Shown here piece after piece: positions 1 to 458 of a DNA stretch of 458 bases. Location of the stretch: the NCBI RefSeq assembly GCF_003334305.1, contig NZ_QOWS01000076.1; one strand, 5' to 3'. This DNA comes from Escherichia coli. Its GTDB lineage: Bacteria; Pseudomonadota; Gammaproteobacteria; Enterobacterales; Enterobacteriaceae. A program made the position numbers and the translations under genes. The stretch's first letter is position 1; every line of letters starts with the position of its first letter. The notes under the pieces were generated by a model. It saw only the letters and a program-made list of their open reading frames with translations, had not been told where the DNA came from and did not search any database.

Positions 1-458
1 GGGTATGACGCTGCCGGGCGCATCACCGTGCTGACCAACGAGAACGGCAGCCAGTCCACGTTCCGGTATGACCCGGTCGACAGGCTGACGGAGCAGCGTG
101 GCTTTGATGGCAGGACGCAACGTTACCATTATGACTTGACCGGAAAACTCACGCAGAGTGAAGATGAGGGGCTTATCACCCTCTGGCATTACGATGCGTC
201 AGACCGTATCACCCGGCGCACGGTGAACGGCGACCCGGCGGAACAGTGGCAGTATGATGAACACGGGTGGCTAACCACCATCAGCCATACCAGTGACGGC
301 CACCGAGTGTCGGTCCACTACGGCTATGACGATAAAGGCCGCCTGACGGGCGAACGGCAGACGGTGGAGAACCCGGAGACGGGGGAGATGCTGTGGGAGC
401 ATGAGACGGGGCATGCGTACAGCGAACAGGGGCTGGCGACCCGTCAGGAGCCGGACGG
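1..458 (+). CDS. Rhs-family YD-repeat protein (polymorphic toxin shell/core region), internal fragment; partial at both 5' and 3' ends
   Basis: Frame 1 is open across the whole window (152 complete codons, no stop), while + frames 2 and 3 hit stops almost immediately (TGA at nt 32-34 and nt 6-8). The translation contains six recognisable YD-repeat units with Y-D dipeptides at codons 2-3, 23-24, 44-45, 64-65, 85-86 and 109-110, each followed by a G/D-R-L/I-T-like motif (e.g. RYDPVDRLT, RYHYDLTGKLT, WHYDASDRIT, YGYDDKGRLTG). GC is about 62% by hand count, consistent with the established GC-rich Rhs core. The paralog (rhsA/B/C/D-like) cannot be resolved from an internal core fragment, so no gene symbol is given. 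Confidence 0.92.

Follow-up and report, generated by a model that had tools for sequence, protein, structure and literature searches.

A short piece of an Rhs core raises the question of whether its sequence belongs to one gene copy or is a composite of several, and of which locus it came from. The window, i.e. the whole 458-nt stretch of Escherichia coli DNA analysed here (contig NZ_QOWS01000076.1, assembly GCF_003334305.1), had been flagged in a first-pass annotation as part of a near-identical multi-copy element, with a risk of assembly collapse or chimerism. Our analysis revealed that it is a genuine, unmixed stretch of a core gene of the RhsG/RhsH subfamily, that it cannot be assigned to one locus with certainty, and that the effect of paralogy on it was most likely fragmentation, neither collapse nor chimerism. 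Overall, the concern over paralogy is partly supported, in that paralogy is real, blurs the locus and has very probably shaped the contig.

The window consists of one stop-free frame (frame 1) with a 152-residue product, corresponding to residues 645-797 of a 1,411-aa vgrG-linked Rhs protein of the RhsG/RhsH subfamily. In strain STN0717-20 it occupies nucleotides 1933-2390 of a 4,236-nt rhs gene. At the DNA level it is 100% identical to genes of closed E. coli genomes that carry the annotation 'RHS element core protein', and 271 records are at least 99% identical over its whole length. The product matches the NCBIfam equivalog RHS_core (NF041261) at profile positions 644-795 with 304 bits, the cutoff of 2,000 bits being out of reach for a fragment of this kind; a full-length window-bearing gene (locus L002, 10069-14304) scores 2,620.8 bits over profile positions 1-1261. 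Two stretches of YD repeats were also detected within the window (TIGR01643, YD_repeat_2x, 48.9 bits, cutoff 15.8). ORFs of 21-47 aa on the minus strand were considered and taken as chance ORFs opposite a G+C-rich coding frame. A search of the window for internal DNA repeats gave none that was significant, just imperfect matches of 14-22 nt, and no inverted repeats. The exact 152-aa product was absent from the protein and contig collections queried by exact look-up, and a scan of species-representative genomes for a 56-nt copy-specific pattern gave no match. The features located along the window are collected in Table 1.

Table 1. Features of the 458-nt window, with their positions and the evidence on which they were placed.
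Feature	Positions	Strand	Evidence
Internal part of Rhs core CDS	1-458	+	Open frame; RHS_core profile; 100% match to annotated genes
5' terminal 77-mer, common to second G/H-type copy; putative branch vertex of K=77 graph	1-77		Exact copies; mismatch list
Top-scoring YD-repeat pair (fragment residues 2-43)	4-129	+	TIGR01643
Copy-specific stretch (304 nt, 27 differences from partner copy)	78-381		Mismatch list; haplotype table
3' terminal 77-mer, common to partner copy; putative merge vertex of K=77 graph	382-458		Exact copy; mismatch list

The full-length protein carries DUF6531 at residues 47-123, Pfam RHS_repeat in its N-terminal part, six TIGR01643 stretches and the TIGR03696 core end at residues 1181-1258, with the core-end motif PIRYTDPLGL at residue 1249. 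Outside the window, a variable tip rich in A+T and then a small immunity ORF come after the core end, the G+C content being 0.635 in the core, 0.437 in the tip and 0.326 in the downstream immunity ORF. In Rhs effectors the C-terminal toxin is enclosed in a beta-cage built by the core, and delivery takes place on VgrG. The window-bearing gene combines the linkage and the N-terminal domain of a T6SS-delivered Rhs effector, namely vgrG/hcp adjacency and DUF6531. Judged from the sequence, its toxin would be delivered by the type VI secretion system, and the window is predicted to code for part of the YD-repeat beta-cage wall of this toxin shell. The solved T6SS Rhs effectors, i.e. Tse5 of P. aeruginosa (8cp6), RhsA of P. 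protegens (7q97), Salmonella Rhs (8qja-8qjd), Tse15 (8uy4) and Tre23 (7pq5), are homologous to the E. coli protein across the YD-repeat cage, window residues included. Their E-values range from 2e-122 to 8e-42 (Tse5, 2e-122; RhsA, 1e-90), with the best stretches spanning full-length residues 294-933 and 310-1084. They differ from it in species, in the N-terminal loading domain and in the toxin, and the search found no structure for the E. coli protein.

The divergence of the copies defines how far the term near-identical can be carried. A megablast search of the window against 5,426 closed E. coli genomes gave a match in 3,708 of them, with a median of three and a maximum of six places per genome; copies of the rhsA/B/C type (73%) fall below the sensitivity of this search and come in addition to these counts. 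K-12 rhsA, rhsB and rhsC are 73.4-73.6% identical to the window and rhsD 81.2%, and the vgrG-linked RhsE-type copy of F200, which is followed by dsORF-e4, reaches 82%. Identities of 94-100% were found for the vgrG-linked T6SS-1 copies and for copies with dsORF-h1 downstream, and second G/H-type copies preceded by a DUF3969 gene are 91-96% identical. Within one genome, the nearest paralogue is 94.1% identical, with 27 differences. Copies of the A/B/C/F type and of the D/E type (81-82%) share no 31-mers with the window, the exception being the K-12 rhsE remnant with 11. The expectation of near-identical multi-copy sequences thus held for the copy number, but near-identity applies only within RhsG/RhsH and fails for K-12 rhsA/B/C and rhsD.

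The core of the window-bearing gene is far nearer to G/H copies than to A-B-C-F or D-E copies. It shares with the RhsG/RhsH elements the G+C-rich YD-repeat core, the PxxxxDPxGL core end, the A+T-rich variable tip, the small immunity ORF with H-repeat/ISAs1 downstream and the vgrG linkage, and no essential difference was found. We take RhsG to map at min 5.3 and RhsH at min 32.8, in tandem with RhsE. Jackson et al. (PMC2935791, citing Wang, Zhao and Hill 1998) give the E. coli subfamilies as rhsABCF, rhsDE and rhsGH, with which the identity classes of 73%, 81% and G/H agree. The names RhsG and RhsH have been given to other genes in a later EHEC paper (PMC7216683).

Two RhsE-type copies deserve mention. 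The K-12 rhsE remnant, a pseudogene (L008, 3904-4075), aligns to window positions 272-443 at 91.9% over 172 nt, and it looks G/H-like or mosaic in this part; the vgrG-linked 'RhsE' of F200 lies at L009, 22218-22658. The ydcD tip/immunity of K-12 rhsE is also present behind the T6SS-1 Rhs of RM10042 and behind the tandem copy of GE3 and IBS28.

Concerning the locus, the exact window lies in a vgrG-linked T6SS-1 Rhs in 14 of the 15 closed genomes sampled, and in these 14 either hcp-vgrG is immediately upstream of rhs or T6SS genes are directly adjacent. The usual order runs from tssB to hcp-vgrG-rhs, followed by a small immunity ORF, ISAs1 and yafV. Copies of the RhsH type have a DUF3969 gene upstream instead of vgrG. 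Specificity for the T6SS-1 locus was a candidate reading, which agreed with nine of nine and then 14 of 14 genomes; it is ruled out by H240, DETEC-E601 and the DUF3969-linked metagenome contigs. H240 (NZ_OL790696.1, L020) holds the exact window at the RhsH position, with flanks collinear with the yncH-pptA region of F200 and 2013C-3181, and DETEC-E601 holds 457 of its 458 bases at that position. Nine metagenome contigs carry the exact window, five of them vgrG-linked and four DUF3969-linked; the scan returned contigs almost all of at least 4.9 kb, and these could be mis-joined in the shared 5' core. Across genomes, the window is therefore found at T6SS-1 (14 closed genomes) and at the RhsH position (H240). 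Within one genome it can be unique, as in STN0717-20, where it has a single place. The suggestion that the fragment might derive from any paralogue is accordingly right about an ambiguity between T6SS-1 and RhsH; it is too broad for A/B/C/F and D/E copies, given the 31-mer result above.

The H240 record, of 4,795,340 bp, is labelled 'unnamed plasmid', typed as IncQ1 and listed in PLSDB though it is chromosome-sized. Its collinearity with chromosomal rhsE/H loci makes it evident that a chromosome has been mislabelled, possibly one into which an IncQ1 segment has integrated. Damage of varied kinds was also observed at the T6SS-1/Rhs junction in strains HKUOPY1 (L022), Ecol_AZ147 (L023), PE15 (L026), 2013C-3181 (L010), SCU-106 (L011) and 510016 (L001). 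In three strains a 5'-truncated Rhs core abuts a truncated tssM, vgrG or tssB, in two the Rhs N-terminus is split by IS3/IS30, and in one tssF is interrupted by IS1.

A second G/H-type copy occurs in two arrangements. At yncH-pptA it stands in tandem with RhsE and is followed by dsORF-h1 (F200, D5, 2013C-3181, DETEC-E601), and in GE3, IBS28 and SCU-106 it stands in tandem behind the T6SS-1 Rhs. Between the tandem copy of SCU-106 and the window there are 27 mismatches, which run from position 78 to position 381 and leave both terminal 77-mers identical, and the RhsH of 2013C-3181 and D5 equals this partner across the window. Downstream of the partner copy lies an ORF named 'dsORF-h1' in RefSeq, and the Rhs with which this copy forms a tandem has 'dsORF-e4' behind it. 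At least five closed genomes (2013C-3181, H15, D5, S51 and SCU-106) contain the window and the partner together, each at 100%. Only four of the 27 differences change an amino acid (R72H, I94L, S98C and D99E), a pattern to be expected if purifying selection acts on two functional copies.

These 27 sites bear directly on the suspicion of collapse or chimerism, according to which the window would be a consensus or a chimera of several Rhs paralogues. The window carries one haplotype at all 27, and it matches many independent closed genomes at 100% over its full length. The widest gap between neighbouring discriminating sites is 45 nt, below K=77, so that every inner 77-mer of 78-381 covers at least one of them and is phased, and no switch of haplotype can occur within the edge. 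It is true that natural mosaics of both haplotypes exist (RhsH of F200, copy 2 of GE3) and that assembly errors related to Rhs have been documented (PMC3045373); even so, a composite origin appears very improbable in the face of a single haplotype that recurs in 271 records at 99% or more. The exact tracts common to the window gene and the partner on either side of the differing stretch measure 98 and 143 nt, and these adjoining tracts would be the collapsed parts of the graph, with two-fold coverage. Over 78-381 single-copy depth is expected even for a multi-copy element, and the refutation by depth proposed in the first-pass annotation is ill-posed.

The position of the window ends is informative in its own right. 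SPAdes edges overlap by exactly K, and the default largest K is 77 for 150-nt reads. The window has the form of such an edge at K=77: its terminal 77-mers are shared with a second copy, the differences start at K+1 and end at L-K, and no gap between them reaches K. The 5' 77-mer has exact second copies in GE3, IBS28 and SCU-106, and 1,951 records match it at 99% or more, as compared with 271 for the whole window; the 3' 77-mer has an exact second copy in SCU-106, and 1,582 records match it at this level. Each of the two occurs at up to three places per genome.

Graphs were simulated on the actual loci of one closed genome at a time, each K-mer being a vertex and each (K+1)-mer an edge, and the non-branching path through the window was followed. 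For 2013C-3181, whose two loci lie about 1.5 Mb from each other, and for the tandem of SCU-106, the simulated edge equals the window exactly at K=77 (458 nt). The path measures 160 nt at K=21, 291 nt at K=31, 295 nt at K=33, 414 nt at K=55 and 3.1-9.5 kb at K=99 or 127, and at none of these values does an edge equal the window. In STN0717-20, with its single place for the window, the simulated graph is unbroken. A tandem of the GE3 or IBS28 type was tried as the partner and rejected, as it accounts for the 5' boundary only; the second copy has a deletion that follows position 377, and the simulated edge extends to 3.1-5.6 kb.

If the window were an arbitrary slice of a longer, correct assembly, the match of both boundaries to 77 nt would be coincidental. 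The collections searched yielded no contig of 458 nt, which would agree with a slice, but 458 is an unusual length for a window cut on purpose. Both ends are exact to the base, and when all windows 200-1,000 nt long on the aligned pair are taken, only about 5e-4 of them have equal flanks at one or other of 17 K values in common use, and about 5e-6 at 77. Since the simulation also yields the window at K=77 only, we consider such a slice improbable.

We thus regard as the probable explanation that a K=77 short-read assembly produced the window as a contig, and that a paralogous second copy caused the fragmentation. On this account it would be a whole short contig from a K=77 de Bruijn graph, shaped like a SPAdes edge. 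A second G/H-type Rhs would be present in the source genome, either RhsH at yncH-pptA or a tandem copy behind the first. With copies that are identical in their flanks and differ at 27 positions within 78-381, the assembler would emit one arm of a bubble, and this arm would consist of the sequence of one copy plus 77 shared bases per end. The window ends fall exactly on K=77 branch points made by a second copy, and paralogy very probably affected the assembly. The case resembles repeat-induced fragmentation of de Bruijn contigs in the shared 77-mer ends, in the differences running from K+1 to L-K and in the match to simulation; it differs in that the assembler and K are here inferred. In E. 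coli K-12, contig breaks and an assembly error due to Rhs elements are on record (PMC3045373).

The partner haplotype need not have come from the same genome, and two strains in one sample would yield the same graph shape. The sample would then be mixed or metagenomic and the second haplotype would belong to a different E. coli strain, with the same graph-edge origin but with alleles of one locus in place of paralogues. This fits the finding that other strains, for example RM10042, have the partner haplotype as their allele at T6SS-1, that 711 records match this haplotype at 99% or more, and that both 77-mers are far commoner than the whole window. However, the closed single genomes that hold both haplotypes are sufficient for the edge. 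K=77 is typical of isolate assemblies, and metagenome defaults usually end at K=55; a metagenome contig that begins 55 nt before its first variant site (L044) fits the metagenome setting. A mixed sample is a minority explanation in our view, though one to be taken seriously, and fragmentation by a paralogue within the source genome is the reading that we favour.

Breaks in and around this stretch were observed in other records. Metagenome loci L027-L045 break recurrently, with pairs of contigs that begin 2,672, 3,052 or 3,245 nt before the window, while several stop about 2,500-2,550 nt downstream of it. L044 starts exactly 55 nt ahead of its first variant site (window position 27), as an edge of a K=55 graph would. 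The chromosome-level record NZ_CM142896.1 of strain 2196 (3.46 Mb) begins inside the Rhs core at window position 342 (record positions 1-117), and it is thus another assembly that breaks within this stretch.

Exchange between the two loci has also left traces. The haplotype table shows that F200 and GE3 carry mosaics of both haplotypes. The tandem pair of GE3 has exact shared tracts of 301-371 nt, and the T6SS-1 Rhs of H5 and the RhsH of D5 share an exact tract of 650 nt. The presence of both haplotypes at both loci, together with the mosaics and the exact tracts, indicates that core segments move between the G and H loci. A bolder proposal is that gene conversion between RhsG and RhsH is frequent and involves core segments, not just tips, and that Rhs 'plasmids' of about 7 kb are real excised circles; we regard this combination as speculative and rather unlikely. 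In the tip-displacement model, an episomal circle is the proposed intermediate (PMC2935791).

Some further observations touch on this subject. The T6SS-1 Rhs genes of GE3 and STN0717-20 have two differences only, at L003 positions 11404 and 11706, which are also the two interruptions of an otherwise exact 722-nt tract common to the GE3 tandem copies; private SNPs, or errors that polishing left in a repeat, may account for them. Three Rhs-only 'plasmid' records of E. coli are without replicon or mobility typing, namely pF873-2 (L017, NZ_OY757120.1, 7,307 bp), pL65-4 (L018, NZ_CP034740.1, 6,767 bp) and CP048292.1 (L019, 7,010 bp, linear). The first aligns end to end (7,294 nt, 95.7%) with exactly one period of the chromosomal RhsE-RhsH tandem (L009, 13710-21003). 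Such records are either artefacts, i.e. circularised repeat units, or circles excised by recombination between tandem cores.

Behind an identical window, at least three tip/immunity pairs were found (WP_001101835, WP_001077738 and dsORF-h1 WP_000978828), which fits the tip-displacement picture of Jackson et al. (PMC2935791). The L002-type tip (L002, 13756-14301) has a weak match to YkuD, an L,D-transpeptidase (E=4.7e-5), and the h1 tip (L016, 7756-8322) has a marginal match to Peptidase_M91 (E=0.002). The L001-type tip (L001, 13753-14562) gave no match in Pfam, and the immunity ORFs behind the three tips gave none in NCBIfam.

In practical terms, the window is unfit for locus placement, for counts of rhs copies or for variant calls near its ends, the last because at least two copies share each terminal 77 nt, and a single-copy read depth would not prove the element to be single-copy. 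It is nevertheless trustworthy as real G/H-type Rhs core sequence. More generally, exact contig ends can betray both the K of the assembler and a paralogue that is out of view. The assembly effect is routine and the biology behind it is already known, the Rhs cores being recombination substrates of polymorphic T6SS toxins.
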